Assembly: GCA_903813345.2 (NCBI GenBank)
Contig: CAIIXF020000001.1
Location: 3,410,001-3,474,000, forward strand
From: Owenia fusiformis
Taxonomy: Eukaryota
DNA length: 64,000 bases
Direction of reading: 5' to 3'
Part shown: positions 7,132 through 51,400 of the stretch, piece by piece
Layout: each line of letters begins with the position of its first letter
Position numbering within the stretch: position 1 is the first letter of the stretch
The notes under the pieces: generated by a model
What the model saw: only the letters and a program-made list of their open reading frames with translations
Database searches by the model: none
Told to the model about the DNA's origin: nothing
Position numbers and translations under genes: made by a program

Positions 7132-7132
<1 letters not shown>

Positions 7133-7162
<30 letters not shown>

Positions 7163-7180
7163 AAGAAGAAGAAGAAGAAG
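7133..7180. repeat. (AAG)n microsatellite adjacent to a HINE-A terminal hairpin
   Basis: Perfect AAG run just before the 7198-7224 hairpin; it accounts for the poly-Phe ORF in the track. Confidence 0.95.
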
Positions 7181-10625: not shown

Positions 10626-13600
10626 GGAGGTAAAGTAGGGTATGTAGGAATTTTTGAAAGTTTATTTGATCAATCTGCATCGTGAATACTGGCAAGTGCG
10701 AATTTCAAACTTCAAAATGGCTTAGAATCTTAACCGGGGGTCGGATTGCAATTTTAATTTCAGATCCGGATTCCTTAGGAAATTCTACCCCTAATTCATA
10801 ACTCATACGTTAAATTTGGAGAACTTTTTATTTTGACATACATTTCGATCACCATATCTCAAAAGTGGGTCAAAACACTTCTTGACGGCAACAAGTTAAC
10901 ATTATGAGCACACTCTTTGCTACATGTATACAAAATTTGGAAGAATATCATTGAAGTGTAGTGTCCGAATTGCAACAATAAGAAAAAACTAAGAATTTGA
11001 CCTAGATTTTGAACTAGGTATTTTGGTGTCCAAATTTTGAAGGAAAGTAGCTTTTGAGGTCCCCTTCTTTTATGGGCTTTCATTATGTTTAGCTGTACTC
11101 ATTCTATATCTCGTATTTTTACACTTCAAAAAATTATTCGGTCCCATTGATTTAACATGGGGCACCAAATTTAGCGATTTTTGAGATTTCAAAACGCCAT
11201 AACTTCAGAACAAGAAGTCGGATCGAAATTTGGTTTGCAGATTTGGATTCCTGAGAAAATTTTACCTTAAATTCATAACTCACACATTAAATTGGGATAG
11301 TTTTTATTTTGACCTACTTTTCGGACACCATATCTCAAAAGTGGGTCAAAATACTTTCTGACGGCAAAAGGCTAACACTATGAGCATACTCTTTGCTACC
11401 TGTATACAAAATTTTAAAGCAAATCATTTGAATATAGTGTCAGAATCGCAAAAATAAGGAAAAACTATGAATTTGACCTAGATTTTAACCTAGGGATTTT
11501 GGTGTCCAAATTTTGAAGCTAAGTAGCCTTCGAGGTCCCCTTCTTTAATAGGCTTTCATTATATTAAGCTGTACTCAGTTTATATCTCGTATTTTACACT
11601 TCAAAAAAATCTTTTTTCCCATTGACATAACATGGGGCAGCAAATTTAGCGATTTTTGAGCTTTCAAAACGCCATAACTTCCGAACAGGAGGTCGAATCA
11701 AAATTTGGTTTGCAGATTCAGATTCCTGATAAAATTCTACCCCTAATTCATAACTCATACGTTAAATTTGGAGAATTTTTTAGTTTGACCTACTTTTCGG
11801 ACACCATATCTCAAAAGTGGGTCAAAATACTTTCTGACGGCAAAAGGCTAACACTATTAGCACACTCTTGGCTACATGTATACAAATTTTCGAAGAATAT
11901 AATTAATCTGTAGTGTCAGAATCGCAAAAATAAGGAAAAACTTTGAATTTGACCTAGATTTTGACCTAGGCATTTTGGTGTCCCAATTTTTATGAAAAGA
12001 AGGTCTTGTGGTCCCTTTCTTTTATGGGCTTCCATTATGTTTAGCTGTGCTTAGTCTATATCTCGTATTTTACACTTCAAAAAAATATTTTTTCCCATTG
12101 AATTAACATGGGGCACCAAATTTAGCGATTTTGAATTTTCAAAACGCCATAACTTCTGAACCGGAAGTCAGATTGAAATTTGGTTTTCAGATTCGAAATC
12201 CTGAGAAGATTTACTATAAGACTGATATCCCGGACATTGGATTCGGTGAAATTTTTTTTGGACCTCGTTTTCGGACACTGATATCTCGAAATCGGTTTGA
12301 GATACCAAAAAACTAAATCGACCCTAGGTTTTCTACTTTTTTATGAGGAACACAATGAAAAAAACCAGGATCAAAAATATTGAAGGACGACCGAGATAAT
12401 GGGAAAAAGTGACAAAGTACTGGATTTGACCTAGTTCTTGACCTTTGACCTAGATAAAAATTTGACCTAATTTCCCATCATCCCAGATACATTCCCTAGT
12501 TAATCATGTAAGCAGCTTAAAGTAAGCTCTTCTAGTTGGTGAGAAATCTGGGAAGGAGGAAGAAGAAAAATAACTAGATTTGTGAAATTGAACAAGTTCA
12601 ATTTAAGACTCCAGATTTATTTGACCTAGATAGATCAGTAAAGAGCTGAGTAAGTAACTGAGTAATTAGTTGAGTAAGTACCTTAGTAGTAGTTGAGTAA
12701 GTAGCTGAGTAAGTAACTGGGTAAAAAGCTGAGTTAGTAGCTGAGTAAGTAGCTAAGTTAGTAATAACTAATTAAGCAATTGAGTAAGTAGTCAAATAAG
12801 TAGCTGAGTAGGTAGGGAGGTAAAGTAGGGTATGTAGGACTTTTTGAAAGTTTATTTGATCAATCTGCATCGTGAATACTGGCAAGTTCGAATTTCAAAC
12901 TTCAAAATGGCTTAGAATCTTAACCAGGGGTCGGATTGCAATTTTAATTTCAGATCCGGATTCCTTAGGAAATTATGCCCCTAATTCATAACTCATACGT
13001 TAAATTTGGAGAACTTTTTATTTTGACCTACATTTCGATCACCAGATCTCAAAAGTGGGTCTAAAAACTTCTTGACGGCAAAAAGTTAACATTATAAGCA
13101 CACTCTTTGCTACATGTATACAAAATTTCGAAGAATATCATTGAAGTGTAGTGTCCGAATTGCAAAAATAAGAAAAAACTAAGAATTTGACCTAGATTTT
13201 GAACTAGGTATTTTGGTGTCCAAATTTTGAAGGAAAGTAGCTTTTGAGGTCCCCTTCTTTTATGGGCTTTCATTATGTTTAGCTGTACTCATTCTATATC
13301 TTGTATTTTTACACTTCAAAAAATTATTCGGTCCCATTGATTTAACATGGGGCACCAAATTTAGCAATTTTTGAGCTTTCAAAACATCATAACTTCTGAA
13401 CAAGATGTCGAATCGAAATTTGGTTTGCAGATTCGGATTCCTGACAAAATTCTACCCCTAATTCATAACTCATACGTTAAATTTAGAATTTTTTTTATTT
13501 TGACCTACTTTTTGGACACGCCACAACTTCCGAACCGGAAGTCGGATCGCAATATGGTTTGCAGATTCCGATTCCTGACAAAATTCTACCCCTGATTCAT

Positions 13601-14375
13601 AACTCATAAGTTAAATTTGAAGAATTTTTTATTTTGACCTACTTTTGGGACACCATATCTCAAAAGTGGGTCAAAATACTTCCTGACGGCAAAAGGCTAA
13701 CACTATTAGCACACTCTTGGCTACATGTATACACGATTTCGAAAAATATAGTTTAAGTGTAGTGTCAGAATCGCAAAAATAAGGAAAAACTTTGAATTTG
13801 ACCTAGATTTTGACCTTGGCATTTTTGTGTCCAAATTTTTAAGCTAGATGGCTTTTGAGGTCCCCTTCTTTTAAAAGCTTCCATTATATTAAGCTGAACT
13901 CAGTCTATATTTCGTATTTTTCACTTCAAAAAAAATCTTTTTTCCCATTGACTTAACATGGGCACCAAATTTAGCGATTTTTGAGCTTTCAAAACGATAT
14001 AACTTCCGAACCGGAAGTCGGATCGAAATTTGGTTTTCAGATTCGGAATCCTGAGAAAATTTCCTACAAGACCAGTAGCGTGGACATTGAATTGGGAGAA
14101 CTTTTTTTTGGACCTCGTTTTCGGACACTGATATCTCGAAATCGGTTTGAGATATCAAAAAACTAAATCGACCTGTTTTCCCCTACTTTTTTATGAGGAA
14201 CACAATGAAAAAAACCCGGATTGAAAATATCGAAGGACGACCGAGAAAATTGAAAAAAGTGACAAAGTACTGGATTTGACCTAGTTCTTGACCTTTGACC
14301 TAGATAAAAATTTGACCTAATTTCCCATCATCCCAGATACATTCCCTAGTTGATCATGTAAGCAGCTTAAAGTAA

Positions 14376-14786
14376 GGGGAGGCATCAAAAGTTCAATGTC
14401 TGATAGGAAACTAAATAAATCTAGTTTTGAGTTGGACCCCCCCCTCCCCCTCAAAACTAAATACAATGAAAGTTGATTGCGGACTTTTCACATGTTTTAG
14501 CGACTCAATTTGGACTTTCATGGGGGCAGTACTATAACTTATTCATGATTCTTAAACATGTGCCAACAACAATAGGCATGATATTCCATGTTGCATGCAT
14601 CTTGGTGAAGAAGGCATCTAGTAAAGTCTTCATTTTTAAACCATTCCAAGGCATTTCGACTCGAAATTGCAAAAAATTTAAATGTTGAAATTTGTCGGAT
14701 AGCAAACTGAAATGGCTTTGACCCCCTCCCCCCCAAACTAGATTTATTTAGTTTTCTATCAGACATTGATCTTTTGATGCCTCCCC
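14376..14786. mobile_element. MITE with TAA TSD (PIF/Harbinger- or Zator-like) inside the HINE-A copy starting at 12573
   Basis: ~50-bp TIR GGGGAGGCATCAAAAG.TCAATGTCTGATAG.AAACTAAATAAATCTAGTTT with TAA at 14373-14375 and 14787-14789. The empty site AAAGTAAGCTCTTCTAG is present in the sibling copy at ~12519. Confidence 0.9.
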
Positions 14787-16910
14787 TAAGCTCTTCTAGT
14801 TGGTGAGAAATCTGGGAAGGAGGAAGAGGAAGAAAGAATAATAATAACTAGATTTTGGAAATTGAACGAGTTCAATTTCAGACTCCAGATCTAGACTTTT
14901 TTTAGCCGAGTCATTCAGAATAAGCCAAGTCATCCAAAATAAGCTGAGTCATCCAGAAAAAGATGGATGGATGGATGGATGGATGGATGGATGGATGAAA
15001 AGGGAAGGAAGGATACGATAGAATAGGAAGGAACAATAGGATAGAATAGGAAAGAAGGATAGAATAGAATAGGAAGGATAGGAAGGAGAGGATACGAAGC
15101 AAGGGTAGATAGGAAGGATAGCATAGGATCAGAAAGGAAGGATGGATGCATTTTTCAATATTTTCTTCTCTACTCTTGACTTTCTATCAGGATACCATCA
15201 GATCTATTTTTCTTGAAATTTCAAAACGCCATAACTTCCGAACCGGAAGTCGGATCGAAATTTGATTTGCAGATTCGGATTCCTGACAAAATTCTACCCC
15301 TAATTCATAACTCATACGTTAAATTTGGAAACTTTTTATTTTGACCTACTTTTTGGACTTTGGACACGCCATAACTTCTGAACTGGAAGTCGGATCGAAA
15401 TTTGAATTGCAGATCGGGTTCCTGACAAAATTCTACACCTAATTCATAACTCATACATTAAATTTGGAGAATTTTATATTTTGACCTACTTTTCGGACAC
15501 CGTATCTCAAAAGTGGGTCAACATACTTTTTGACGGCAAAAGGCTAACGCTATAAGCACACTCTTGGCTACATGTATACACAATTTCGAGGAATATAATT
15601 AAAGTGTAGTGTCAGAATCGCAAAAATAAGGATAAACTATGAATATGACCTAGATTTTGACCTAGGTATTTTGGTGTCCAAATTTTGAAGTTAAGTAGCC
15701 TTCGAGGTTCCCTTCTTTCATAGGCTTTCATTATTTTAAGCTGTACTTAGTCTATATCTCGTATTTTACACTTCAAAAAAATCTTTTTTTCCCATTGACA
15801 TAACATGGGGCACCAAATTTAGCGATTTTTAAACTTTCAAAATGTCATAACTTCCGAACTGGAAGTCGGATCGAAATTTTGTTTGCAGATTCGGATTCCT
15901 TAGAAAATTCTATACTTAGTTCATAAATCACACCTTAAATTTGGAGAATTTTTCTTTTGACCTACTTTTCGGACACCATATCTCAAAAGTGGGGCAAAAT
16001 ACTTGCTGACGGCAAAAGGCTAACACTATTAGCACACTCTTGGCTACATGCATACAAAATTTCGAAGAATAATCTGTAGTGTCAGAATAGCAAAAATAAG
16101 GAAAAACTTTGAATTTGACCTAGATTTTGACCTAGGCATTTTGGTGTCCAAATTTTGAAGCTAGATGACTTTTGAGGTCCCATTCTTTTAAAAGCTTTCA
16201 TTATATTTAGCTGAACTCAGTCTATATTTCGTATTTTTCACTTCAAAAAAAATCTTTTTTCCCATTGACTTAACATGGGCACCAAATTTAGCGATTTTTG
16301 AGCTTTCAAAACGCCATAACTTCCGAACCGGAAGTCTGATTTGAATTTGGTTTTCAGATTCGGAATCCTGAGAAAATTTCCTATAAGACTAATATCCTGG
16401 ACATTTGATTCGGAGAACTTTTTTTTGGACCTCGTTTTCGGACACTGATATCTCGAAATCGGTTTGAGATATCAAAAAACTAAATCGACCCTAGCTTTTC
16501 TACTTTTTTATAAGGAACACAATAAAAAAAACACGGATCGAAAATATTGAAGGATGACCGAGAAAATCGAAAAAAGTGGCAAAGTACTGGATTTGACCTA
16601 GTTCTTGACCTTTGACCTAGATAAAAATTTGACCCAATTTCCGAGGAACTAGATTCTGGACCTAAATTGACCAAATGACTGACTTTACTGAAAACTTTAT
16701 GGTTATTGAGAAAACTGGGATAGAATAATAAGAAGAAGAAGAATAAGAAAACTGACGAAAACAATAGACTCCAGATTTCATCTGGAGTCTAATAATAAGA
16801 AAACTGGCAAAAGCAATAGACTCCAGATTTTCATCTGGAGTCTAATAATAATAAAGAAAACTGGCAAAAGCAATAGACTCCAGATTTTCATCTGGAGTCT
16901 AATAATAATA

Positions 16911-18452
16911 ACTAGACATTTAAAATCGCCACGGGGGCGATTTCGTAGAATGCCGTTCCTCGCCGCAGCAGCAAATTCGGTGCACAATTGACCTTTTTCA
17001 AGGTCACACAGAGGTTGAATTCCAAAACCGAAAGCATATTTGATATCATATTTTGCCATATTTTTGAAATTTTGGCACTTAATTTAAAAACCCGTACCCT
17101 TATCCTCCCAGACAAATTTTTCAAAATTGGGGCACCCAATCCCAATTAAAAAACCCGGAATATATGTTAAATGAGAAGAATGAGGCATGCCATGTACAAA
17201 ATTTGGGCAAAACATATCTATAGTGGCTCCTTGTACATGAAAAACAAGAAATATGTCTTACGTCGTTTTACGTTGAAGGTCAAAGGTCAAGGTCAAAATG
17301 TTGACCTAATTTACTATAGTTAAGTACAGTGTAATACAATGGTACCAATTTTGAATCAATTTGAGCAATTTTAGCAATTTAACATTTTTGACCTTTTCAA
17401 GGTCACCCGGAGGTCAAATTCCAAAACCACAAGCATATTTAGAATCAGGGACATCCATACTTCATACTTGCAAAGAATTGGAATGAAAATCACCCAAATT
17501 ATAAACCCTAGAGATATGTTAAATGGGAAGAGTAAGGCATGGAAAAAATAACTACAGTGGCTCCTTGAACAGGTAAAACAAGAAATAAGTTTTACGTCAT
17601 TTTACGGTGAAGGTCAAAGGTCAAGGTCAAAATGTTGACCTAATTTACTCTAGTTTAGTACAGTGTAATACAATGGTACCAATTTCGAATCAATTTGAGC
17701 AATTTTAGCAATTTAACCTTTTTGACCTTTTCAAGGTCACCCGGATGTCAAATTCCAAAACCACAAGCATATTTAGAATCGGGGACATCCATACTTCATA
17801 CTTGCAAAGAATTGGAATGAAAATCCTAGTTTTCAACTTTGAGGTCATTTGAAGGTCAATGTCAAAGGTCAAGGTCAAAATGGTGACCTAATTTACTCTA
17901 TCCGAGTACAGTGTAATACAATGGTACCAATTTGGAATCAATTTGAGCGATTTTGATTTTTGAACTTGTTGACCTTTTCAAGGTCACTCAGAGGTCGGAT
18001 TCCAAAACCGAAAGCATATTTGGAATCAGGGGCTTCTATTCTTTATATCTGCTCAGAATTGGGATCGGATACACAGTTTTCAAATTTTGCCCCACTGGGG
18101 TGCCCCATTTTTCAAATTTGGGGCACCCAATTTTAAAACCCGGAATATATATGAAATGGCAATTGTGAGGGATGGCATATGCAAATTTTGGGTAAAAAAT
18201 AAAAATGGTTACTCCTTGTACGTGCAAAAATGTAAAAATTTGCGATTTGACCTTGGCTAATTAGGGAGGGGCTAATTAAAAAAATGAAGGCATTTCCCTG
18301 TAGCCCAGGAACATGTCAAGGTTGATGGTATATGCTAATTAGCTGACATGTCGGTGTGTGCGGAGAAATCTTGCGTGGAATAATAATAATAATAAAAATA
18401 AGAAAAAGGCGAAAACTATAGAATGCCGTTTCTTCGAAACCGGCATTCTAAT
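16911..18452 (-). mobile_element. Helentron-like (HINE) family B element inserted among the family A right ends
   Basis: Left end ACTAGA + hairpin AAATCGCC-ACGGG-GGCGATTT + TAGAATGCCG. Right end (AAT)n + hairpin TAGAATGCCG...CGGCATTCTA. Internal tandem repeats rich in AGGTCA/TGACCT. Same architecture as family A, unrelated terminal sequence. Confidence 0.8.
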
Positions 18453-21029
18453 AAAGAAAACAGGCAAAAACAATAGACTCCAGATTTTCAATCTGGAGTC
18501 TAATAATAACTAGACTTTGGAAATTGAACAAGTTCAATTTCAGACTCCAGATTAAGACCTTTTTTAGCCGAGTCATCCAGAATAAGCCGAGTCATCCAGA
18601 ATAAGCTGAGTGATCCAAAAAAAGATGGATGAATAAAATAGGAAGGTAGGATAGGATAGAATAGGAAGGAACGATAGGATAGAATAAGAAAGAAGGATAG
18701 GATACAATAAGAAGAAAGGATATAATAGGATAGGATAGGAAGGAAAAGATACGAAGGAAGGATAGAAAAGAAGGATAGGATAGGATCAGATAGGAAGGAT
18801 GGATGAATTTTTCAATATATTCTTCTCTACTCTTGACTTTCTATCAGGATACCATCAGATCGATTTCAAAACGCCATAACTTCCAGCAGTCAGATCCAAA
18901 TTTGGTTTGCAGATTCGGATTCCTGACAAAATTCTACCCCTAATTCATAACTCATACGTTAAATTTGGAAACTTTTTATTTTTACCTACTTTTTGGACAC
19001 GCCACAACTTCCGAATCGGAAGTCGGATCGGAATTTGAATTGCAGATTCGGATTCCTGACAAAATTCTGCACCTAATTCATAACGCATACGTTAAATTTG
19101 GAGATTTTTTTATTTTGACCTACTTTTCGGACACCATATCTCAAAAGTGGGTCAAAATACTTTCTGACGGCAAAAGGCTAACACTATAAGCACACTCTTG
19201 GCTACATGTATACACAATTTCGAAGAATATAATTGAAGTGTAGTGTCAGAAACGCAAAAATAAGGAAAACCTTTGAATTTGACCTAGATTTTGACCTAGG
19301 CATTTTGGTGTCCAAAATTGAAACTAACTGGCTTTTGAGGTCTCCTTCTTTTGAAGGCTTTCATTAAATTAAGCTGAACTCAGTCTATATTTCGTATTTC
19401 TAACTTCAAAAAAATCTTTTTCCCATTGACTTAACATGGGCACCAAATTTAGCAATTTTTGAGCTTTTAAAACGCCAAAACTTCCGAACCGGAAGTCGGA
19501 TCGAAATTTGGTTTGCAGATTCGGATTCCAGAAAGAATTCTACCCCTAATTGATAACTCATACCTTGAATTTGGAGAACTTTTTATTTTGACATACTTTC
19601 TGGACGCCATATTTCAAAATCGGTAAGAGTAATCAAAAAACGGATGGCACACATATGAAAGGGCTGTTTCTAAGCTACATGATGAAAAAAAGATGAAGAC
19701 GTTTCGATAAATAACGACGAAGATAATAGAACAAAGGTTGAAAATGTAAGATTTGACCCAGTCCTAGGATAGGATAGGATATAGAATAGGAAGGAAGGAT
19801 AGGATAGGAAGGAAAGGATAGGAAGGAAGGATAGATAGGAAGGATATGATCAGACAGGATAGGAAGGAAGGATGGATGATTTTTTCTATATTTTCTTCGC
19901 TACTCTTGACTTTCTATAAGGATATCATCAGATCGATTTTTCTCGAAATTTCAAAACGCCATAACCTTTGAACCGGAAGTCGGATCGAAATTTGGTTTGC
20001 AGATTTGGATTCCTGAGAAAATTCTACCCTTAATTCATAACTCATATGTTAAATTTGGAGAACTTTTTATTGTGACCTACTTTCTGGACGCCATATTTCA
20101 AAATTGGTAAGTGTAATCAAAAATCTAATGTCATATCTTTGCTTTGGCTTTTTCTAAGCTACATGATGAAAAAAAGATTTAGGAGTTACGATAAACAACG
20201 ACGAAGATAAATGACAGAATGTTGAAAATGTAAGATTTGACCTAGTTCTTGACCTTTGACCTAGATAAAAATTTGACCCAATTTCCGAGAAACTAGATCT
20301 AGGACCTAAATGGACCATATATAAGACTTGACTCAATATCTTCTAGTTAACGAGAAAACTGGGAAAGAAAAATAAGAATAAAGAATAATAAAGAATAAGA
20401 ATACTGACAAAAACAATAGACTCCAGATTGACATCTGGAGTCTAATAATAATAAAGAAGAATACTGACGAAAACAATAGACTCCAGATTGACATCTGGAG
20501 TCTAATAATAAAGAAGAATACTGGCAAAAACAATAGACTCCAGATTGACATCTGGAGTCTAATAACATTATGCAACAACAGTCTTGTAAAGTCACTTATG
20601 AATGTTGCTCTGATAGGCTAGGCAAATGGAAGTTTAACATCCCAAAAATTGCAACAGTTTTTAAATTAGGCTTATATTGTATATTGATACCAGTTGAAAA
20701 ACATATCAAAAATATAGAAAAATATATGCAGTGGACAAATATGAAATGTCACATTCAAGGTACCCCCCTCCAAATTTGAGTATGGGATTGTAAATATTTT
20801 TTTATTTCAAAATGGAATACTCTTGTCAACTAAACGAGTAATATTATGATAGTTTACTGACATAAGAGCAACCAAAAATTGTTAACCAACTATTTGAGTG
20901 CAATAATTGGCATTTCTAGCGCCAAATATATGAAAATAGGCCATCAAATAGCCCGAATTTAATATAACAATGTATTTATTTCTGTATCAATTCATCAGAA
21001 TTGCATGAAAAATATTAAGGAGGGTATTG

Positions 21030-27072: not shown

Positions 27073-29801
27073 TATATGTTTAAAAAAATGTTCATATTTG
27101 CGAACAAATAGTTCAGAAGACAACAGAATCTTCGATTTAATTCCTCAGTTACATAAACGGTATTTCGATAAACAATTAAGATCTGCACTTTTAACCCAAA
27201 CCGTTTATTTAACTTAAGTAAGGAATTAAATCAACAATTCTGTGAGAAAAAAACATCGTGGGGATTCTGCCTACAACGTGTGAAAAAAAGGAAAAAAGAA
27301 ATATCGTACTTTCGACGTTTAGACATTTTGTTACCGAAACGACAAGCGTAATCGAGCGGATCACCAGTGCTTTTGGTAATTTAAAAACAACCGCTTGTTT
27401 TCTCAAGAACTCACTCTTTTTTATCTGCCTCAATGACAGCTTCTTGTCTATGCCATATATAACCTGAATGCGTTGTCACACCCCAGAAAAGAAACAAGAT
27501 ATTGTCACAGACCACTTTTCCCAAAGACAATCTTATTTCATTTATATTCCAACATTTTGTTTCTTGGGTTGCTGCTTTTGGTTCAGGTTTGAAGAAAATG
27601 TTGAAGTTTGTGTTTTGTGCATGATAAATGAGAAGCACAAGGAGATCTGTATGAGTACTGTATTTGAGGTTTGGACACTTTGGATTGCAGTTTTCACAAT
27701 CACAATATCTGCATCAGATTCTGAATGCAGCACATGTACACTCAATGTTTTCCAACCTGACAGACAGAATTACCATCATTCCTATGCACTGAAATTATAT
27801 TAATGAAAGACTCCCCAGATATCTGAGATTTTAATGTTCTCTGTCAGTTTAAATTCCGTTTAATAACCATAAATTCGTTTCTACAGCATTATACATCCAA
27901 TTGATAGTTCCATAGTTATGTACTCTTATGTAATGATTTATTTATCTGATGAATTTAAATATATGCAAATTTTGTAATTGCAGATTGTAATTAATAATTT
28001 AAACAATATTAAATTCTACAAAATCTACAACTTACATTATTTAGATAAGCCTAGTATAGAGCAGTTATCAAATACCCTAATATCAGAGTGGTGATATGTA
28101 AATTATTCTTCAAATAAAAGTGAGGTCACCTTAACATTTCACCTGGTGCAACTAATAATTCCTATTTTTCATACTAATAAGGTATAAACCTTCACAAAAC
28201 TTGTATTTTAGATGATGACAAGCCTATATAAATGATTTAGATGTCAACTCTAATACAAATGTGATGCATTGTGGGAGTTAATCATCAAAACTATAGTCTC
28301 CCCTATAGTGGGCGGGGCAAAACTATGAAAATGAAATAATTTTTTTCTTCCTAAGTATACACCTTAGAATTCTGACACTCACCAAATATAAAGTTCATAT
28401 CAATATGTAACACCATGATTTTTTTCATGCTTTTCTGACAAACTGATCCTAAAATATGTAAATAGATATGCGATAACATGCCTGTTTTGTGGCCTATTTT
28501 GTTATACTTTGGGGTCAAATGACCAATTACTGGTCTCAAAATTGATTAAAATAATATTTAAATTATTTGTGAATATGTGATCTATCATAATAAAGCTTGA
28601 ATACTTGACTAAAGTATTCCATTTGGGAAGAAAAAATTGTTTCCTACCAATACTCAATTTTGGGGTAGGGTTGTTGGGGGTACCTAGGAAGTGAAATTTC
28701 ATATTTGTCCACTGCATACATTTTTCTATATTTTTGATATGTTTTTCAACTGATATTAATACATAATATAAGACTAATTTAAAAACTGTTGCAATTTTTG
28801 GGATGTTTGGGCCTTTTATGAGCCCATTTGCTTGGCCTATGATGCATCACACTCCATCTAACTTTTCAACCATATAAATCTGAAACAATAACATTAGTCT
28901 GTAAAATTTGAACCAAATAACTACAATTAGATTCATCGGAGATTGTATTTCTTCTGAAAAAGAGGCCATTTTTTAAGATAATTCATTCTTAGTTAAATCT
29001 CTTGACTGGGAATTATGGATTTAATCAGAAATAACATCTTGAACAACCCTTATACAAGTATAATACAGTGTGGAACATAAAATCCCTCCCTATATACTTC
29101 CCTACCTAGGTTTGTAGAAGGTATGTTAGTGTGATGACATAGAGCTTGATTCAAGACTAAAGATAAACTTTATGCACACGCATTTCAATTTCAATTTTAA
29201 GGATAAAAGCTGAAATGTTTTGACAAACAAAAAGGGAGATGTTAAAGTGACCTTAGTGCAGGTTTTTTAACGGCACATCAAATCAAAGGTACAAAATATA
29301 CTGAAAATGTGCATTTAATTCTGCTTTTACCACAAGGTCCACCCTTAATATCATGAAAACTGGTGAATATTTATATAAGAGGAATAAGCACAAACAGGAA
29401 TTAGAAGCCTTCCACTTACCGTATTCTCACTGATAAGCGCACAGTGCACTTCCCAAAATAAAATTTAAAAGGGAGATTCTAATAAGAACACATACAAGGC
29501 AATCTGAATTAGATTTTGAATATAACCAAAATTGAGTAGCCATTTACAAGAAGTGCTGATTTTAAAAGCAATATTTCCTTCAGGTAAAAACAAAGAGAGT
29601 GCATCAATCAATCAACCCATTCCGGCCATATAAGCATTATGTTAAAGGTATAGCCAGTAAATTACTTTTTACATACGGACAAAAGGCTTTGCTATATCCC
29701 TTCTCAAATTTTGTTCAGTGGGATAATTAACCGACACAAATTGTTATAACCATAAACATTTTTATCAAAACAGATATAAATTATTTAGGTTAAGAAGTAA
29801 A

Positions 29802-31161
29802 ATGGCACTGCTAAAAGGAGTTTCACATCTTTTTCGAACGAGCTCTAAATACTTTGGTGCAAGTGGCTTGCAGAATCGTTGGTATTCTGAAGAGGTTAAA
29901 AAAGCACACAAAAAGCAAAATACTGAGATTATGTTCTCAATGGTAAGCAGGATAGTTTTTCTAAAAATTCATATATGAAGTATTTGTAGTTCAGCAATGT
30001 TGTATATCAATTAACCTTTTTTATTTTTGTGAATGGATTTTGGATTGAGTGTATTGAATGGACTATTGCAAAACACTTTTCTCATTTTTTTAGAATTGGG
30101 AAGATGTTGCACCAATAAGACATGCAATGGGAATCAAAAGTGGAGACAGAATCTTCACAATTGCATCATGTGGTGCCAATGCTATGACCCTTCTCCTGGA
30201 TGATCCTGCTGAAGTTGTGGCCCTAGATTTATCAATTCCACAGCTACATTTGGCAAAGTTACAAGCAGCTTGCATCAAACATCTGACGTACCAAGAGTTC
30301 ATTGACTTTGCTGGAGTTGACAGAGAAAATGTAAAAGCTGAGGAGCGTGTCCGCATATATGAAAACATCAGGAAAGCATTAGAATCAGATGTAAGAGAGT
30401 TTTGGGACTCAATGACACCTGAAATAGAGTTTGGCATTATACATTGTGGAACATATGACACAATTTTCAGGAATACTGCTGAGGATATGGTCTATGTTGC
30501 ACTTGATACACGTGACATCAAAACATTCCTGGAAATGGGTGATGATATTGAGGAACAGGCTAACTTCTTTGAAGAAGTGATTAACACCAAACACTGGAGA
30601 AAAGCAATGTATAGGCTGACCTACCATACAACAAAGGATATGGACTTCTCCATCATTCCAGATGTGGATTATGCAACATTTTACTACAGGAGAATGGTTG
30701 ATGTTTATAAGAGCATTCCAATGAAGGAAAACTATTTTGGAGAATACCTTTTCACTGGCGGATACTCTGGGAAAAACAAGCTCAGAGATTACCTTCAAGA
30801 AGAGAACTTTGCTGTAATGAAAGATCGTGTTGAACGCTTGCAGTGGGTCCATGGAGAACTCACAGATTGGCTTGCCAAGTACCCTGCAAGCACTCAGCCA
30901 CTAAAGTTTGATGGCATCTGTATATCTAACATAACAGACTGGCTATCCTTAGCAAACCACAATGCAGCAATTGAATCAGCTGTCAAAATCTGCAATCCAG
31001 GTGGACGAATCATGTTTTGGAATTTAAAAGGCATGTCCAAATACTGGCCAAGTGAAATGATTGACAAAGCAATCAAGGTTGAACATGAAATTGAAACTTC
31101 GGCAACATTACTAGATCGAGCAGTTGTCTGGGAGCCACTCAGGGTTGCAACAGTTATATAG
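29802..31161 (+). CDS. BtaA-like / DUF3419 family SAM:diacylglycerol 3-amino-3-carboxypropyl transferase homologue, 402 aa, with predicted mitochondrial presequence
   Basis: Exon 29802-29942 (47 codons, donor GTAAGC) joins exon 30094-31161 (acceptor TTTTTTTAG) in phase 0. Motifs FSMNWED, GDRIFTIASCGANAMTLLLDDPAEVVALDLSIPQLHLAKL, ENYF, ISNITDWL, PGGRIMFWN and LDR match the BtaA/DUF3419 pattern. AATAAA at ~31186. Confidence 0.85.
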
Positions 31162-32126
31162 ACATTTTGATAAATTGAACAAAGTAATAAAATTGTATGG
31201 CCATCAAGTGACATTTCATTAAGCATACCTTTAGCACCTAAGACTTATAACCAGATGTCAAAACCGAAAAATGAGTCGATAATGCTAATAAATAAGCAAG
31301 CTGGATACTTATTAGGTTCAGACCTGAGCACCCACAGCTATTTCTGATGCTACGTTACCATAAAATAAAACAAATGACAAGGTAATCTAGATAACAGAAG
31401 TAGGAAAACAATAAACATATCAAGGGCATTAATTTAAGGAGAAAGTACAAAACACACAACTTTTCAAATATATAAGGGCAAAAATGTTTTCTGAGCTATC
31501 TCCAGGGTTCAGAACATTTTTTTAATTTTCCTATTGAAGCCAAAAGTTTTTTTAACACCATCATTCAGTGAAATGTGAACTATAACAGATACAGGCCTAA
31601 AGCTTTTTCATAAAAGACCCAGGTCTTCATGAACTAAAGAGTTACCCCTGTATCTAAATAGAAACTTATCAAGGCTGACAGTATATCCTTATGAGAGTAG
31701 AGCAGTACAATATGTCACATAAAATAACATTTTTATATCTAAGTAAACAACTTGAAAACTAGAAAACAGCAACTCCCAAAAGAAGGAATTCCCAAAAAAT
31801 AGATGGTATTTGAGTTATCGGAAATTTTTTCATGGTTGATTATAAAACTATTTTAGTTTTGATTTGAGTCCTGGGTCCATTGTATAATCTATTATAAAAT
31901 ACTGTAATAAAAAAACAATATTACACTCTCCAAGTACATGCACACTGATATTCCAATTAAAACCAATACTGAAATTCTAAAAAAAAAGATTTTCCATCCT
32001 TTCTTTTTATGGTAAAATATTATTTTGAAAAAATTCAATAATTCCAAAGAAAAGTATACATTTTCACAATAATATGTACATTGACCTTTTTCAACAGAGT
32101 GCAATATTATATTTCACCTAAATGTA

Positions 32127-33493
32127 AACCAGAACAACGGCAACGCCAAAGCGTAGCGAATCCCATCGAACAGAAATGGCTGGCATTTTTACAAACGAAT
32201 AGCAAACATCATAAAACAACACACCAGAAAGGCCACCATTTTCAAAATGGTTGCTCACTAGCCAAGATGTCATCAGAAGAAATAATATGCTTTTAAGTAG
32301 CCACCTCTAAAATCTTTGAAAAATCATACATGTACTTGTAAAATAACACACATAAAAATGGTGGCCATTTTTCACAATGGCCAACTACTCCCCAAAGTTT
32401 TATTAGACAATGTGCCATGCTTAAAGTATTCACATATCAAATATGAACAAAATCGCTCCATTACTTTTCGAGTTATAGTAAAATACGTTAAAATGGCGGC
32501 CATTTTTCAAAATAGCCACCTTCGACCAAAAGTGTCATTAGAAATAGACAGTGTGCCATGCTTATAGTATTCACATACCAAATATGAACAAAATCGCTCC
32601 ACGACTTTTCGAGTTATAGTAAAATACGTTAAAATGGCAGCCATTTTTCAAAATTTTTTTCAAAATGGCCGCCTTCTACCAAAAGTGTCATGGGACAGTG
32701 TGCCATGCTTATAAATAGTATTCACATACCAAATATGAACAAAATCAGTCCACTACTTTTCGAGTTATAGTAAAATCCGTTAAAATGGCGGCCATTTTTC
32801 AAAATTTTTTTCAAAATGGCTGCCTTCTACCAAAGGTGTCATAGGACAGTGTGCCATGCTCATAGTATTCACATACCAATTATGAAAAAATCGCTCCACT
32901 ACTTTTCGAGTTATAGTAAAATACGTTAAAATGGCGGCCATTTTTCAGTTATAGTAAAATACATTAAAATGGCGGCCATTTTTCAAAATGGCCGCCTTCT
33001 AACAAAAGTGTCTTTAGACAGTGTGCAATGCTTATAGTATTCACATACCAAATATGAACAAAATCGCTCCACTATTTTTTGAGTTACAGCAAAAATCGTA
33101 AAATGACGAGTAAAGGCCGCCATTTTTCAAGATGGCTGCCATGTGCTTCTTTAATATCTACATTTGTAGCATTATTAATGCCCCTTATAATTTTTTTTAC
33201 ATTTAAAACATATTGCTATTACAGTTTTACATATTGCACCTAAATTACTGTAAAATCGGCCCTAAAATGGCCGCCATTTTGAAATGAGCCGCCATTTTGA
33301 AAATCGGCTTTCGAGCAGAACTTCTACCCCCATAGGTTATATGTGTACAAAATATGAACAAAATCGGGCCAACAGTATTTGAGTTATTGCCCGGACGGAC
33401 GGACGTACGGACGGACGGACGGACGGACGGACGGACGGACGGACGGACGGAGGCGTTCCCTATATCCCTCCAAACTTCGTTCGATGGGATAAT
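32127..33493. mobile_element. Helentron-like (HINE) family D element with ~145-bp central tandem repeats and (ACGG)n
   Basis: Perfect 12-bp subterminal inverted repeat ATCCCATCGAAC (~32160) / GTTCGATGGGAT (~33479). (ACGG)n at ~33392-33450. Internal units carry AAAATGGCGGCCATTTT. Confidence 0.8.
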
Positions 33494-42400: not shown

Positions 42401-45400
42401 CCATCTATAAGTCACCCAAATAATCATCTCTACATGTATATACAGGGTGGTCAAAAAAATGGAAACCCTGCATTTTCCTTATATCTTTGTCACTTTAAGG
42501 ATTTACTCCCTGATATTTCACACATTTGTACATCATTCAATTTCCTACCACCCTACCACATTTCATGACCATCAGACTGATAGTCACAATTTTACAGCAC
42601 TTTGAATAACATGCTTCAGATTTGACCATTATCGCGCTGTAGGCAAAACAGCACAGTTGTCAATGAGCCAAATGCATTCCTCAGCAGGTATGGCCTGAAT
42701 GACACGAATGGTCTCACTTTTAAGGTCTGCTATTGCCCTGAGGTCATTCTCATACACACTATCTTTGTCGTTTACCCACAAGTAGGGACATTTTAGACGA
42801 TGAGTACAGGTTTCCCCACAACGCAATAGTGGCCACTGGGCATGTTCTTTAAAGTACTGTAACATTGTGACTATCAATCTGATGGTCATGAAATAAGTAG
42901 GCCGGTAGCAAATTGAATGATGTACAAAAGTGTAAAATATCAGGGAGTTATTTTTTAAAATAACAAAGATACGAGGAAAATGGTAATAGGGTTTCCATTT
43001 TTTGACCACCCTGTAACTGCCAAGTGACTTACCTGCAAGGAATGATTTCTATTGAATCGTCTTTCAACACGTGACCCTGATGGCAGCTTCAGCAGTATCC
43101 TGATAGCATCGGGATCATCTGCAGCCGGCTCTTCTGGAATACTGCAACGTAACTCTGCTTTTTTCGCCTCAATTTCCTGTAAGTTAAACCCAGAATTAAA
43201 AAATACATAATAATGACATGCAATACAATGCTATATATCTACCAAAAATCTGGATAACCCCTAATTGAAAAGAAAATTCTAGAATGACAAGGTAAATTCG
43301 AAATTTTTCAACTGGACACAAACCACGAGCCTTACACACATGTACTGCTAGGTCTGGCCTATTTAAATCTAATAAACCAGCATCATCTATATAAACAGAG
43401 ATAATAGAACTCTGCGCTATAAAAATGCAAAATTCTGCAAGCCAAAATGTGAAATTCTGCAAAAATTCTGCATTTTATCAAAACATTTTTTTCAAAATAG
43501 TGTGAAATTCAAAATAAAGCTACCATATTTTTCTAATGTGTACATGTATTTGAACAACAGATATATTTAGTAACAATATAGAGATGAAATATTGGCCAGG
43601 AGCAATAGAAAACGCATAGGCTAAGATCGATAGAAATAATTTTAAGTAAAGATGACATGGTAATTGATCTGTGTTTATTTATTTTGTGACTCACACTAGG
43701 TGTTCCTTACAAAGCAACCTCAATAAATCGCTACAAAAGAGAGCAACAAATGATTCAAACGATCTACAAGGACCTAAAACAAGGCTAGGTAAGCTTTCAG
43801 TTCAAATTTTGTTCTCAAAGCATGAATTCCGCGAAAATCAACAGAAATTCTATATTCTGCAAATCGCAAAATTCTACATTTTTTTCTGCTGCACCGCGGA
43901 AAAACAGAATTCTAGTATAGTATCTCTGTATAAAGTACAAGTTTAGATTTGATAAATAAAGCACTTACTTTTCAGCAAGCTATTTATCAAAGCGTGATTA
44001 CATTCAAAACGTTGTAGTTCAGCACAAGAATGACTACAATTTAAACCACAATGGAAAATCATTATGTTTTAACATTATCACATGATTTAATATATCCGTT
44101 ATCAAACCTGTAATCTTTGCTCTGCTTCCTCTTGCTTTAGTTTCTCCTCTTCCTCTGCCTTCTCCACCATTTCTTGCTCTTCCTTCTTCTTACGAGCCTT
44201 AATAAACCAATAGAATATTAATACATTTACATCACATGGAGCACACTGTAAAATCATACAGCATTAACATGCAAAATGTCACCACCTGCAATTTGTCACA
44301 AACGCCAAAATGCAAGAAGCTGGCGAAGCTGTCACAAAATGTAAGCTATAACAATATGTCAGCACTTGTGGTGGTGACATACAAAACAAAGTTTAATATC
44401 TTCCTAAAATTGTGACATTTAGGTATAATGGTAACTTATGACTACATTTAATATGAGCTACCTTTTCTTGGTCTGCCTTTAGAGATTCTAGATAAGCTAC
44501 GTCCTGCTCCTGCCTTAGGCTCTGGTTGAAACTTCTCTCATCCCTAACAAATGAAATATATTATCTCATTTAACATAATACATGTTTCTTTACATACACT
44601 TTTAACACAAATTGTGTATTATATTTCTTTATTTTTCAATGCCTTAAAAGTTATTTAAAAAAAAATTGAAGCCGTTAAAACTTGGGGCCTTTTAGCTCCT
44701 AATCTTAAATTAAGACTCACCTATCGGCTCTAACTGCAACAAGGTAGCCTTCGTTATCATTCATGCATCTTGTCACCCTGGTTACTAACTGGGCTGCATC
44801 TATTGGACCTTCTAATCTTGCGACAACTGTCATTCTATTCTCACGTAACACTATTAGGGCCAGGAAGGGGTATGTGTTTTCTCGAAGTGCTTGAGATACT
44901 GAAACAGACACATTGATATGTTTGTTGTTCTTCATTGTGGTAAGTTTACATTAATCAACCCAGCCCATATGGGTATTAGGGTTTCCACGGTTCGCTATTT
45001 TCCCCACACATGTATATCAACCAATCATTAAACATGTATTGGGGAAAATTGGTAGAATAAACTAGAAAAACAGCAACTCAAAGGAGAAGCAAATCCAACC
45101 AAACAATTCTTATTATTGAATTTGGAGGCCATGAACATTTCTTCTTGATCAGAGATTGTTAACCTATAAAGCATTTTTATATAAATTATAACCAAAGCTG
45201 AAAAGACTAACAGACAGACAAATAAATGGATGGCTTTTCTATATCCCTATACAAACTTTGTTAACATGTTCACATTTCTAATCAAACAGCAACAAATTAC
45301 ACACCAACTGCAACAGACTAGCCATATTTTTGGGTAGGGACAACAAGGAGTCCAACTATGAATATAAGTGAACAATAAGTGATAACAATGTCACTTAGTA

Positions 45401-48400: not shown

Positions 48401-51400
48401 TTTCGAACCCTAGTTTTCGTATCCACTAATTGCGACTCAAGATCAAGTTTTCCCATAAAAGTGAAAGGGATAAAATATGCTTGATAAAATGTTTGCAATT
48501 TAATTCTTTTCTGGAAACACCATTATCGAAATAAACTATAATTTTTGAATAAGACTAAATGCGAAAATGACGTTCTTGGGAGCCAGCTTTCTCAAACCGG
48601 AAGTCAAACCTGCGCAAACAGACGTGAAAACCGACCCGGTACTGCATCCTTAAAAGAGTATCGGTTGAAAAATAATCCTAGAATACCTAACATATTTTAT
48701 CATACCGTGCGCTTATTCAATTTGCAATTCAATCGTAAACTCTGTCTTGAAAAAATAATTTTACCAGATTTGTTGAATTTTCTAGCGGAAATTGCCTGCT
48801 CCCCCCCTCCGTCCCATTTTCACGATCACCGGGCGTGGTAATATTAATGTAATAATAACTAGATTTGTGAAATTGAACAAGTTCAATTTAAGACTCCAGA
48901 TTTATTTTACCTAGATAGATCAGTAAAGAGCTGAGTAAGTAACTGAGTAATTAGCTGAGTAAGTACCTTAGTAGTAGTTGAGTAAGTAGCTGAGTAAGTA
49001 ACTGAGTAAAAAGCTGAGTAGGTAGCTGAGTAAGTAGCTGAGTAAGTACCTGAGTTAGTAGCTGAGTAAGTTGCTAAGTAAGTAATAACTAATTAAGTAA
49101 TTGAGTAAGTAGTCAAATAAGTAGCTGAGTAGGTAGAGAGGTAAAGTAGGGTATGCAGGAATTTTTGAAAATATATTTGATCAATCTGCATCGTGAATAC
49201 TGGCAAGTGCGAATTTCAAACTTCAAAATGGCGTAGAATCTAAACCGGGGGTCGGATTGCAATTTTTGCTACAAGTATACAAAATTTCGGAGAATATCAT
49301 TGAAGTGTAGTATCAGAATCGCAAAATAAGAAAAAACTATGAATTTGACCTAGATTTTTTAAACTAGGTATTTTGGTGTCCAAACTTTGAAGTAAAGTAG
49401 GTTTTGAGGTCCCATTCTTCTATGGGCTTTCATTATGTTTAGCTGTACTCATTCTATATCTCGTATTTTTACACTTCAAAAAATTATTCGGTCCCATTGA
49501 TTTAACATGGGGCACCAAATTTAGCGATTTTTGAGATCTCAAAACACCATAACTTCAGAACAAGTAGTCGGATCGAAATTTGGTTTGCAGATCTAGATTT
49601 CTGAGAAAATTCTACCCTTAATTCATAACTCATACGTTAAATTTGGAAAACTTTTTACTTTGGCCTACTTTTTGGACACCATATCTCAAAAGTGGGTCAA
49701 AATACTTTCTGACGGCAAAACGCTAACACTATAAGCATACTCTTTGCTACCTGTATACAAAATTTTAAATCAAATCATTTAAATATAATGTCAGAATCGC
49801 AAAAATAAGGGAAAACTATAAATTTGACCTAGATTTTGACCTAGGCATTTTGGTGTCCACATTTTGGAGCTAAGTAGCCTTCGAGGTCCCCTTCTTTAAT
49901 AGGCTTTCATTAAATTAAGCTGTACTCAGTCTATATCTTGTATTTTACACTTCAGAAAAATCTTTTTTCCCATTGCCATAACATGGGGCACCAAATTTAG
50001 CGATTTTTGAGCTATCAAAACGACATAAATTCCAAACCAAAAGCCGGATTGAAATTTGGTTTGCAGATTTGGATTCCTGAGAAAATTCTACCCTTAATTC
50101 ATAACTCATACGTTAAATTTGGAGAACTTTTTAGTTTGACCTACTTTTCGGACACCATATCTCAAAAGTGGGTCAAAATACTTCCTGACGGCAAAAGGCT
50201 AACACTATAAGCACACTCTTGGCTACATGTACACAAATTTTCGAAGAATATAATTAATCTGTAGTGTCAGAATCGCAAAAATAAGGAAAAACTTTGAATT
50301 TGACCTAGATTTTGACCTAGGCATTTTGGTGTCCAAATTTTTATGAAAAGAAGGTCTTGTGGTCCCTTTCTTTTATGGGCTTCCATTATGTTTAGCTGTG
50401 CTTAGTCTATATCTCGTATTTTACACTTCAAAAAAATATTTTTTCCCATTGAATTAACATGGGGCACCAAATTTAGCGATTTTTGAATTTTCAAAACGCC
50501 ATAACTTCTGAACCGGAAGTCAGATCGAAATTTGGTTTTCAGATTCGGAATCCTGAGAAAATTTCCCATAAGACTGATATCCTGGACATTGGATTCGGTG
50601 AAATTTTTTTTGGACCTCGTTTTCGGACACTGATATCTCGAAATCGGTTTGAGATACCAAAAAACTAAATCGACCCTAGGTTTTCTCCTTTTTTATGAGG
50701 AACACAATGAAAAAAACCAGGATCAAAAATATTGAAGGACGACCGAGATAATGGGAAAAAGTGACAAAGTACTGGATTTGACCTAGTTCTTGACCTTTGA
50801 CCTAGATAAAAATTTGACCTAATTTCCCATCATCCCAGATACATTCCCTAGTTGATCATGTAAGCAGCTTAAAGTTAGCTCTTCTAGTTGGTGAGAAATC
50901 TTGTAAGGAGGAAGAGGAAGAAAGAATAATAACTAGACTTTGGAAATTGAACAAGTTCAATTTCAGACTCCAGATTAAGACCTTTTTTAGCCGAGTCATC
51001 CAGAATAAGCCGAGTCATCCAGAATAAGCTGAGTCATCCAAAAAAAGATGGATGAATAAAATAGGAAGGTAGGATAGGATAGAATAGGAAGGAACGATAG
51101 GATAGAATAAGAAAGAAGGATAGGATAGAATAAGAAGAAAGGATATGATAGGATAGGATAGGAAGGAAAAGATACGAAGGAAGGATAGATAGGAAGGATA
51201 GGATAGGATCAGATAGGAAGGATGGATGAATTTTTCAATATTTTCTTCTCTACTCTTGACTTTCTATCAGGATACCATCAGATCGATTTCAAAACGCCAT
51301 AACTTCCAAACCGGCAGTCAGATCCAAATTTAGTTCGCAGATTCGGATTCCTGACAAAATTCTTCCCCTAATTCATAACTCATACGTTAAATTTGGAAAC

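Follow-up and report, generated by a model that had tools for sequence, protein, structure and literature searches.

A stand-alone DUF3419 gene of Owenia fusiformis, expressed and interrupted by an intron, encodes a predicted SAM-dependent transferase with a putative mitochondrial presequence

BtaA, the DGHS synthase, moves the aminocarboxypropyl group from SAM onto diacylglycerol. DUF3419, the family to which it belongs, serves as a marker of betaine-lipid (DGTS) synthesis and is considered a bacterial, algal, and fungal family; to our knowledge, its chemistry has been demonstrated for one branch only. In algae, DUF3419 transcripts predicted DGTS in 20 of 21 positive strains (PMC6642084), and those members whose biochemistry is known are all aminocarboxypropyl transferases (PMC10685587). 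An animal-encoded aminocarboxypropyl transferase (ACT) that acts on a small molecule is described for the bursatellin/oxazinin pathway of molluscs (PMC11869996). The mollusc enzyme resembles the gene described here in being an animal SAM-dependent enzyme of presumed microbial ancestry, and it shows that animals can make small-molecule homoserine ethers (PMC11869996). It differs in belonging to an isonocardicin-synthase type family, in its known substrate, and in its NRPS gene cluster, no counterpart of which is seen in the Owenia window.

The window, that is, the whole 64-kb stretch of DNA analyzed, contains a two-exon gene on the forward strand (29802-31161) whose product, as read from the sequence and its translations, has 402 amino acids. 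Our preferred reading, which we hold to be somewhat better than an even bet, is that Owenia expresses from this nuclear gene a stand-alone, single-domain class I SAM-dependent DUF3419 transferase that is not a BtaA orthologue, that carries a putative mitochondrial presequence, and that, by analogy with its family, would transfer an aminocarboxypropyl group. The features of the gene and its neighbors are as follows.

29802..29888, + strand: codons 1-29, putative mitochondrial presequence, with four K+R, no D or E before residue 30, and RWYS at residues 26-29
29802..29942, + strand: exon 1 coding sequence, 47 codons from the start ATG at 29802 to ...ATG|gtaagc, equal to residues 1-47 of gene model P0003
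29943..30093, + strand: intron of 151 nt, GT..AG, phase 0, gtaagc ... ttttttag, inside the conserved domain
30094..31161, + strand: exon 2 coding sequence, 355 codons plus TAG at 31159-31161, DUF3419 catalytic domain
30148..30243, + strand: residues 66-97, which run from strand 1 through the G-x-N loop (G74, N76) and strand 2, with D92 at its end, to Q97; predicted SAM-binding part
31162..31652, + strand: 3' untranslated region, of at least this length, 31652 being the end of the X2 contig
42955-43230, - strand: UBX-domain exon, neighbor in the window
55411-58596, - strand: intact non-LTR retrotransposon ORF, neighbor in the window

The spliced product equals, letter for letter, P0003, a 402-amino acid NCBI gene model of Owenia fusiformis on a 62.2-Mb contig, and a stop codon at 29724-29726 closes the reading frame upstream of the ATG. 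The original prediction of an intact, spliced animal gene with an intron junction at 29942/30094 was borne out in RNA: a 1682-nt RNA-type contig of run X2 joins 29820-29941 to 30093-31652, skipping 151 nt with GT..AG ends. This is one contig, from one of the four sequencing runs compared; among the runs listed with the gene none is recorded as RNA, the X2 contig itself being RNA-type. In X1 and X5, two runs that look like DNA, the intron is covered. Because the X2 contig begins 18 nt past the ATG, the start codon takes its support from the gene model. The gene is found in RNA-type contigs at a word depth of about 30, and the roughly 6% of raw RNA run X14 that was read held zero reads on it. 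Eighteen variant sites were counted across the sequencing contigs (10 synonymous, 8 non-synonymous); we rejected these counts as a measure of selection because paralogue-like contigs are mixed in. Several of the sites equal residues of the paralogue P0004, so they tell little about constraint.

The predicted DUF3419 match was recovered by profile search. Exon 2 matches Pfam PF11899 at E 8.2e-45 (154 bits, cutoff 28.2), its residues 2-322 aligning to profile positions 16-345 of 385, and positions 1-15 lie in exon 1. P0003 carries the consensus residue at all 13 of the near-invariant columns of the family (at least 90% conserved among 119 sequences). Several motifs had been described as deviating from the usual pattern; they are present as quoted, but they still hold G74, N76, D92, and Q97, each of which is at least 90% conserved in the same 119 sequences. 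The AlphaFold2 model (pLDDT 92, pTM 0.89) has a Rossmann-type core with a helical insert. Its predicted strands (66-70, 87-92, 296-300, 319-323, 347-356, 374-376, and 396-401) form a seven-strand Rossmann-like core, in which G74 lies in the loop after strand 1 and the acidic D92 ends strand 2, as in class I SAM-dependent transferases. From these positions we predict that residues 66-97 are where the class I fold binds SAM.

Structure comparison placed the model among methyltransferases. VIA-align returned Z scores of 13-15 over ~157-190 residues, the best being 15.3 over 157 residues and the matches being class I methyltransferase cores, many of them SAM- or SAH-bound, and the nine Foldseek matches at E ≤ 0.001 were methyltransferases only. 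Sequence searches of the PDB gave no match below E 0.1, and the structure searches yielded generic methyltransferase cores and no solved DUF3419 structure; NCBIfam gave no family match besides a chance one at E 0.089. Aminocarboxypropyl and methyl transfer cannot be told apart from the sequence or the fold. The enzyme might be a SAM-dependent methyltransferase rather than an aminocarboxypropyl transferase, its substrate being a small molecule, a protein, or RNA in the mitochondrion, a reading for which its structural neighbors speak, together with weak, sub-cutoff Pfam matches to Methyltransf_11, _12, and _25 on exon 2 residues 241-308 and the restriction of demonstrated DUF3419 chemistry to one branch. 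Against it, the structural matches span just the ~157-residue Rossmann core that is common to all SAM enzymes, and the biochemically known family members all transfer the aminocarboxypropyl group (PMC10685587). We consider methyl transfer unlikely, though worth keeping in view.

The original prediction had called the gene a homologue of BtaA, the enzyme of the first step of betaine-lipid synthesis. This is correct at the level of the Pfam family, and the two proteins have in common PF11899, a split Rossmann core with a helical insert, and G-x-N, D, Q, W, and S at near-invariant positions. A close relationship to BtaA did not survive the phylogenetic analysis. In a maximum-likelihood tree of 70 rows, built without the eukaryotic BTA1 domains and R. 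sphaeroides BtaA, the Owenia proteins form a clade with environmental, eukaryote-like transcripts (support 97/97). Stand-alone fungal DUF3419 proteins (99/95) lie on the same side as Owenia, a 99/91 split separating both from 39 bacterial-type rows, although P0020, P0022, P0026, P0031, and P0146 on this "eukaryote" side may be bacterial. The BtaA proteins that occur with BtaB make up a long-branched clade of their own (100/99) on the opposite side of the split, nested deep in the bacterial half. Forcing Owenia together with this clade was worse by 27.9 lnL units, with a p-AU of 0.040, a marginal value for a constrained group that was chosen after the tree had been seen and that involves long branches. 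Chondrinema BtaA is 22% identical to the Owenia gene (tblastn 1e-15), and Rhizobium BtaA gave no tblastn match in the window at E ≤ 10.

Differences extend to gene content. In four BtaA loci (L001-L003 and L087), the btaB methyltransferase gene lies directly downstream, whereas the Owenia window is without btaB, as had been predicted: the exon 2 Pfam search found a single domain with no fused second (BtaB) domain, the best tblastn value for a BtaB-like ORF in the 64-kb window was E 2.6, and a BtaB profile found nothing there at E ≤ 1; as a control, the profile recovered the BtaB of an independent locus, from Shinella, at 2.7e-64. Among the best 150 of 1529 matches, six alone were long enough to hold a BtaB domain, and these carried PEMT, GNAT, PPDK-like, or no further Pfam domains. 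Compared with BtaA, the animal protein also has the putative N-terminal presequence and an intron in its gene and is without the "GRDP" loop of the bacterial proteins.

The best bacterial-type match, P0019 (E 1.8e-45, ~33% identity), represents single-domain proteins of a length similar to the animal protein. Their genes lie in a conserved PPDK-like/DUF3419/unknown/GNAT/AMP-ligase cluster, in contrast to the animal gene, which stands alone, and P0115 and P0098 are fusion forms of this protein type. A GTDB scan with P0019 as query supplied 80 bacterial loci. The sole locus annotated in full (L028) is flanked by HMG-CoA reductase, UbiA, a PEP-synthase-like enzyme, GNAT, and AMP-ligase genes; the BLAST families at its flank positions are shared by between 31 and 68 of the 80 loci, and a btaB-like gene was found in none of them. 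Because the BtaA-with-BtaB clade is separate and the closest bacterial relatives sit in another operon without btaB, the name BtaA homologue applies at the family level only.

Among relatives with a named organism, the closest are found in Mortierellomycota and chytrid fungi, where they are stand-alone proteins. P0021 (Haplosporangium), P0175 (Mortierella alpina), and P0197 (Quaeritorhiza) are single-domain proteins of about 415 amino acids, but their identity to the Owenia protein is only about 30%, and they retain the bacterial-type loop and a C-terminal "DR.FFY" motif, unlike the animal protein. In the Mortierellomycota proteins the N-terminus is extended and bears an R-L-[FL]-S motif; the case for targeting is less clear in these fungi because the extension has just 1-2 basic residues in its first 30. 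In the Atlas searches, DUF3419 clusters were dominated by bacteria, and Porifera was the most frequent phylum in one of the clusters. Literature searches on DUF3419 and on BtaA-like, BTA1-like, or betaine lipid synthases found nothing on animals, although this absence may have to be read against the BTA1 taxon lists that supplement PMC10685587. Nothing on animals was found in a search on the bacterial P0019-type operon, and nothing relevant in one on Owenia fusiformis and horizontal gene transfer.

These comparisons bear on the proposal that the enzyme has a true BtaA function, making diacylglycerylhomoserine from SAM and diacylglycerol in mitochondria, either as an end product or for methylation to DGTS by an unlinked enzyme. 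The shared PF11899 domain, the retention of every near-invariant residue, and the algal association of DUF3419 transcripts with DGTS (20 of 21 positive strains; PMC6642084) all favor this proposal, and PEMT+DUF3419 fusions tie other branches of the family to lipid head-group chemistry. It is opposed by the position of the gene outside the BtaA-with-BtaB clade and by the AU result, by the BtaA tblastn comparisons, by the lack of a BtaB-domain protein among the six long matches checked in the best 150, and by the missing btaB in both the nearest bacterial loci and the window. Moreover, 12 Owenia paralogues in two old subfamilies suit substrate diversification more than a single housekeeping lipid step, and no report of betaine-lipid synthesis by annelids was found in our literature search. 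On balance, a genuine DGHS synthase seems to us a distinctly improbable identity for this protein.

The presequence-like character ascribed to the N-terminus was supported by several simple metrics calculated with our own script and by the structural model. In P0003 the first acidic residue is at position 30, S+T number 6, and the helical moment is 0.72; AlphaFold leaves residues 1-27 disordered, with a pLDDT under 50. Comparable features recur in paralogues P0009, P0011, and P0015. All five full-length Owenia N-termini have their first acidic residue at 30-36 and 4-8 K+R within the first 30 residues, and an R-x-[FYL]-[ST] motif lies at residues 23-27 in four of the five, P0163 being the paralogue without it. 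By comparison, acidic residues number 1-7 among the first 30 of each of the five bacterial N-termini, which carry no R motif of this kind ahead of the domain, and the environmental relative L004 has no presequence. On the strength of composition metrics and predicted disorder, a mitochondrial presequence is plausible. The idea that the enzyme had gained a targeting exon proved too simple, however. Exon 1 encodes the presequence-like N-terminus together with the opening residues of the conserved motif at the N-terminal end of DUF3419 (...IMFSM), and it is not a pure targeting exon because the intron lies within the conserved domain, splitting this motif (...FSM|NWED...).

Owenia holds 12 DUF3419 gene models on eight chromosome-scale contigs, and these make up 8 of 10 matches in one protein search and 11 of 21 in another. 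Identity between them falls to 31%, and many are partial. The family is old and expanded and comprises two subfamilies, A and B; the present gene belongs to A, and in subfamily B the WED motif is lost and N76 is changed to H. Such partial models and altered motifs, taken with the 8 of 18 variant sites that are non-synonymous and the zero reads in the sampled part of run X14, could indicate that the present gene is itself a decaying or neutrally drifting family member with no enzymatic function of its own. We find this very hard to accept for a gene that has kept its 402-codon frame intact, is spliced, occurs in RNA-type contigs at the depth given above, retains 13 of 13 near-invariant residues, and has a confidently predicted fold.

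The possibility that the gene plays no part in the animal, being a contaminant of the assembly or a recent arrival from bacteria, to which the mostly bacterial make-up of the family and the lack of a further named animal among the 10 and 21 protein matches might point, is already contradicted and can scarcely be credited, given the GT..AG intron within the domain that is removed in RNA, a GC content (0.31-0.38) that matches the surrounding DNA, the animal exons and retrotransposon predicted and found in the window, the 12 divergent models on eight chromosome-scale contigs, and the absence of a close prokaryote relative (0 of 65 pattern matches confirmed across 185,579 species genomes; best bacterial-type match about 33% identical). 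A metagenome scan returned two loci only, among them L004, which is cDNA-like. No inverted repeats were found flanking the gene, so there is no sign of its being DNA-transposon cargo.

Under the preferred reading, that of a stand-alone, putatively mitochondrial DUF3419 transferase, the first 26-29 residues would act as a matrix presequence and would be cleaved near R26-W-Y-S. The mature enzyme would bind SAM and move an alkyl group from it onto a nucleophilic acceptor. By analogy with the family, this group may be 3-amino-3-carboxypropyl, with MTA as the by-product, and diacylglycerol would be one of several candidate acceptors. A broader and more speculative extension, which we put forward as doubtful, is that Owenia and the marine eukaryotes with its closest relatives possess an undescribed mitochondrial pathway in which diversified DUF3419 enzymes transfer the aminocarboxypropyl (homoserine) group from SAM onto lipids or small metabolites, the line being as old as the opisthokonts, retained by a few animals and by fungi that diverged early, and lost from other groups.

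Together, these data describe a lineage of animals in which a dozen DUF3419 copies are expressed or annotated, with introns and putative organelle targeting. Since the bacterial branch closest to these genes lies in another operon altogether, a DUF3419 match by itself is an unsafe basis for scoring DGTS capacity. The sister relation to proteins of Mortierellomycota and chytrids offers a test case for patchy retention versus gene transfer among opisthokonts. If mitochondrial aminocarboxypropyl transfer is correct, it would be a new piece of animal metabolism, and if the pathway is indeed as old as the opisthokonts, animals would make homoserine-ether compounds of their own.

The DUF3419 gene of the window is composed of the following parts.

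29802-29942, + strand: coding part of exon 1, 47 codons from the ATG at 29802, ending ...ATG/gtaagc
29943-30093, + strand: intron of 151 nt, ending ttttttag
30094-31161, + strand: coding part of exon 2, 355 open codons and a TAG at 31159-31161

On translation, the upstream frame is shut by a stop 75 nt 5' of the ATG. The spliced product matches P0003, a 402-aa "unnamed protein product" of Owenia fusiformis at NCBI, at every residue; P0003 lies on a 62.2-Mb Owenia contig, which makes the window annelid chromosome sequence. GC content stays at 0.31-0.38 all along it. For transcript evidence, four sequencing runs were compared with window positions 29400-31700. A 1682-nt contig from run X2 (word depth ~30) links 29820-29941 to 30093-31652 and omits 151 nt with GT..AG ends, thus demonstrating, in one run, that the transcript is spliced and carries a 3' UTR of 490 nt or more; the contig begins past the start codon, and the ATG is outside its coverage. 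Reads from X1 and X5 span the intron and behave like DNA, and the ~6% of raw RNA run X14 that was read contained no read on the gene. The identity to P0003 and the spliced X2 contig, from that single run, bear out the original prediction of a real intron-containing gene, including its junction.

Other features of the window are listed below.

55411-58596, - strand: possibly intact non-LTR retrotransposon, an uninterrupted 1061-codon ORF with Exo_endo_phos_2 endonuclease and RVT_1 reverse transcriptase domains
42955-43230, - strand: UBX-domain exon (UBX E 2e-4)
44717-44950, - strand: exon-like ORF near the UBX exon
32340-33120: tandem array, unit ~141-151 nt, 3 to 6 copies, 62-98% identity, ~1.2 kb downstream of the DUF3419 gene
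4090-19200 and 50400-52950, - strand with partners on +: recurring near-identical ORF pairs, starts near 4090, 7295, 14911, 18592 and 51015

The UBX exon and the exon-like ORF are probably parts of one UBX-domain gene, which may be FAF2/UBXD8-like, and the ORF pairs indicate a repeat, a few kb long, that occupies much of the window's first third.

As predicted, exon 2 matched the Pfam DUF3419 profile (E 8.2e-45, 154 bits against a cutoff of 28.2, profile positions 16-345 of 385). Exon 1 by itself gave no Pfam match, and NCBIfam held no model for the protein. In a 119-sequence alignment, P0003 carries the consensus residue in all 13 columns that are at least 90% conserved (G74, L81, D92, Q97, L103, L111, G121, L143, W151, G161, G166, N260, and S325). 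The motifs ASCGAN and DLSIPQ, described earlier as deviant, are indeed present, but they therefore keep the key family positions.

The window has a single copy of this gene. Single-protein and alignment searches together identified 12 Owenia gene models (P0003-P0009, P0011, P0015, P0030, P0162, and P0163), which made up 8 of 10 matches in one search and 11 of 21 in the other; no other named animal was among the matches of either. The family is spread over eight chromosome-scale contigs, at 85% down to 31% identity to the window protein. Subfamily A, to which the window gene belongs, has ASCGAN and an intact WED, whereas subfamily B has AASGTHA, has lost WED (E50 to V/I), and carries H in place of the near-invariant N76, with D92, Q97, W151, and S325 kept. 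By its sequence, subfamily B may have altered chemistry or be a non-catalytic branch; its Owenia members (P0011, P0015, P0162, and P0163) all lie outside the window.

With phmmer, 1.84 billion representatives were searched exhaustively, giving 1529 matches at E <= 1e-3, of which 723 reached E <= 1e-10 and 34 reached E <= 1e-30. Among the closest non-Owenia sequences, P0010, P0013, P0014, and P0016 share 43-46% identity with P0003, and P0017, P0018, P0025, and P0029 are B-type. The one such sequence read as DNA, L004, a 1543-nt AT-rich metagenome contig, has an uninterrupted ORF (171-1319) running through ...LFSMNSED...; its A-type protein, 61% identical to P0013, begins MG... and has neither intron nor presequence. 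The contig is cDNA-like and resembles a transcript from a different marine eukaryote. The named members of the next clade, found in a search seeded with that clade, are Mortierellomycota (Mortierella, Haplosporangium, Lobosporangium, and others) and three chytrids.

To place these proteins, we built an IQ-TREE phylogeny (70 rows, 390 columns, LG+C20 PMSF, eukaryotic BTA1 domains and R. sphaeroides BtaA left out) with DUF3419 proteins as BtaA anchors whose genes directly precede one for a class I methyltransferase. The anchors are those of Rhizobium leguminosarum (locus in synteny with that of S. meliloti), Chondrinema (labeled "BtaA family protein"), and Shinella. Eleven Owenia and seven environmental sequences grouped with P0031 and P0146 (support 97/97), and the fungal clade (99/95), with P0020, P0022, and P0026, was their sister. 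A split with support 99/91 set the 31 rows on the Owenia/fungal side, a "eukaryote" side that includes five rows without an organism name, apart from 39 bacterial-type rows. The phylogeny thus placed the Owenia clade beside fungal stand-alone proteins and outside the BtaA-with-BtaB clade (100/99), which lies deep within the bacterial half. Constraining the Owenia clade together with BtaA was 27.9 lnL units worse (p-AU 0.040), a marginal result for a grouping that was named only after the tree was seen and involves long branches. In tblastn against the window gene, Rhizobium BtaA found no match at E <= 10 and Chondrinema BtaA matched at 1e-15 with 22% identity. Among the best 150 of the 1529 matches, only six were long enough for a second domain; these carried PEMT, GNAT, PPDK-like, or no further Pfam domain, and none had a BtaB-type domain. 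Seven proteins of 620-634 aa (P0064, P0082, and P0164-P0168) have an N-terminal PEMT/ICMT-type membrane methyltransferase fused to DUF3419. They adjoin the BtaA-with-BtaB clade and may be single-chain betaine-lipid synthases in which a PEMT-type methylase replaces BtaB.

Animal-clade motifs were searched in 185,579 species genomes, one each, and none of the 65 pattern matches was confirmed. A scan with P0019, the best bacterial-type match, gave 208 relatives, from which 80 loci (L006-L085) in many phyla were kept. None of the 80 has a BtaB-like ORF at E <= 1e-3; as a control, the BtaB profile found Shinella BtaB at 2.7e-64 and none in a Brevibacillus locus. BLAST families recur around the DUF3419 gene: a ~900-aa protein directly upstream (55/80 loci), a single family occupying both +1 and +2 (68/80), a ~505-aa protein at +3 (55/80), and, farther upstream, families of ~353 aa (38/80) and ~434 aa (31/80). 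Pfam annotation covered two loci. L028 (positions 3-10171) reads, from -3 to +3 around DUF3419, HMG-CoA reductase, UbiA, and PPDK_N+PEP-utilizers, then a ~446-aa gene of no family, GNAT, and AMP-binding; L063 has an FtsX/MacB permease upstream and the same three downstream genes. Fusion proteins P0115 (PPDK-like+DUF3419) and P0098 (DUF3419+GNAT) link genes of the cluster. Carriers of the conserved cluster range over many phyla, with Akkermansia, Phycisphaerae, Acidobacteriota, Cyanobacteria, and Clostridia among them, and we found no paper on it. Since btaB is missing from all 80 loci and the conserved neighbors differ, DUF3419 is functionally heterogeneous, and the betaine-lipid branch is not the one closest to the animal proteins.

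In all five full-length Owenia N-termini (P0003, P0009, P0011, P0015, and P0163), our own script placed the first acidic residue at 30-36 and counted 4-8 K+R up to residue 30. All but one of them show R-x-[FYL]-[ST] at residues 23-27 (RWYS, RTYS, RYFS, and RRLT), presumably an MPP cut with Icp55-type trimming. These proteins are just 31-47% identical overall. In the five bacterial N-termini, the first 30 residues include 1-7 acidic ones and no such motif precedes the domain; Mortierellomycota proteins are extended too, with R-L-[FL]-S and few basic residues in the extension. The shared features, together with disordered residues 1-27 in the model, fit a predicted matrix presequence, as called by simple composition and motif metrics. 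Mitochondrial targeting, as originally predicted, is plausible from the Owenia N-termini, but L004 shows that relatives can be without the extension. The claim of a gained targeting exon went too far: the intron separates M47 from N48, within the motif aligned to bacterial ...RY(A/S)QVWED..., so exon 1 comprises the presequence and the domain start rather than a separately added targeting exon. Several partial Owenia models start at or just before ...NWED, which suggests, without proving it, that the paralogues have this intron position in common.

The AlphaFold2 model of P0003, with the 119-sequence alignment as input, had a mean pLDDT of 92 and a pTM of 0.89, with residues 1-27 below 50. A PDB sequence search gave no match below E 0.1, and thus no close relative. 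Foldseek returned nine matches at E <= 0.001 (TM-scores 0.2-0.4) and VIA-align a best Z of 15.3 across 157 residues, all to class I SAM-dependent methyltransferase cores; no match took in the helical insert. The window enzyme is most likely a nuclear-encoded, mitochondrially imported SAM-dependent transferase. It would move the 3-amino-3-carboxypropyl group from SAM to a hydroxyl or amine, releasing MTA, a reading that we favor tentatively, by analogy, because the only characterized branch of the family does so. Plain methyl transfer is unlikely. Diacylglycerol as the acceptor, the true BtaA function, is slightly less probable still. Of the predicted BtaA homology, the family match stood and the grouping with BtaA-with-BtaB did not. 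The size and age of the Owenia family point to diversified substrates. Mollusc ACT enzymes show that homoserine ethers of small molecules are made by animals (PMC11869996); ACT, an animal enzyme like the window protein, comes from an unrelated family.

The gene is long resident in the Owenia lineage, as its intron, its host-like base composition, the 12 copies, and the presence of sequences from outside Owenia in both subfamilies indicate. The figure legend of a published BtaA-domain tree has choanoflagellates and fungi and no animals (PMC10685587). The DUF3419 line may be an old opisthokont gene retained in a few groups, or may have passed between eukaryotes or from bacteria. P0003 is already public, automatically labeled "DUF3419 family protein", and literature listings gave no paper on animal DUF3419 genes. 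What appears new, judged from sequence, is that animals have an expanded branch of DUF3419 transferases that stand alone and carry a predicted presequence, which is of interest, yet less so than a true "animal BtaA" would be.
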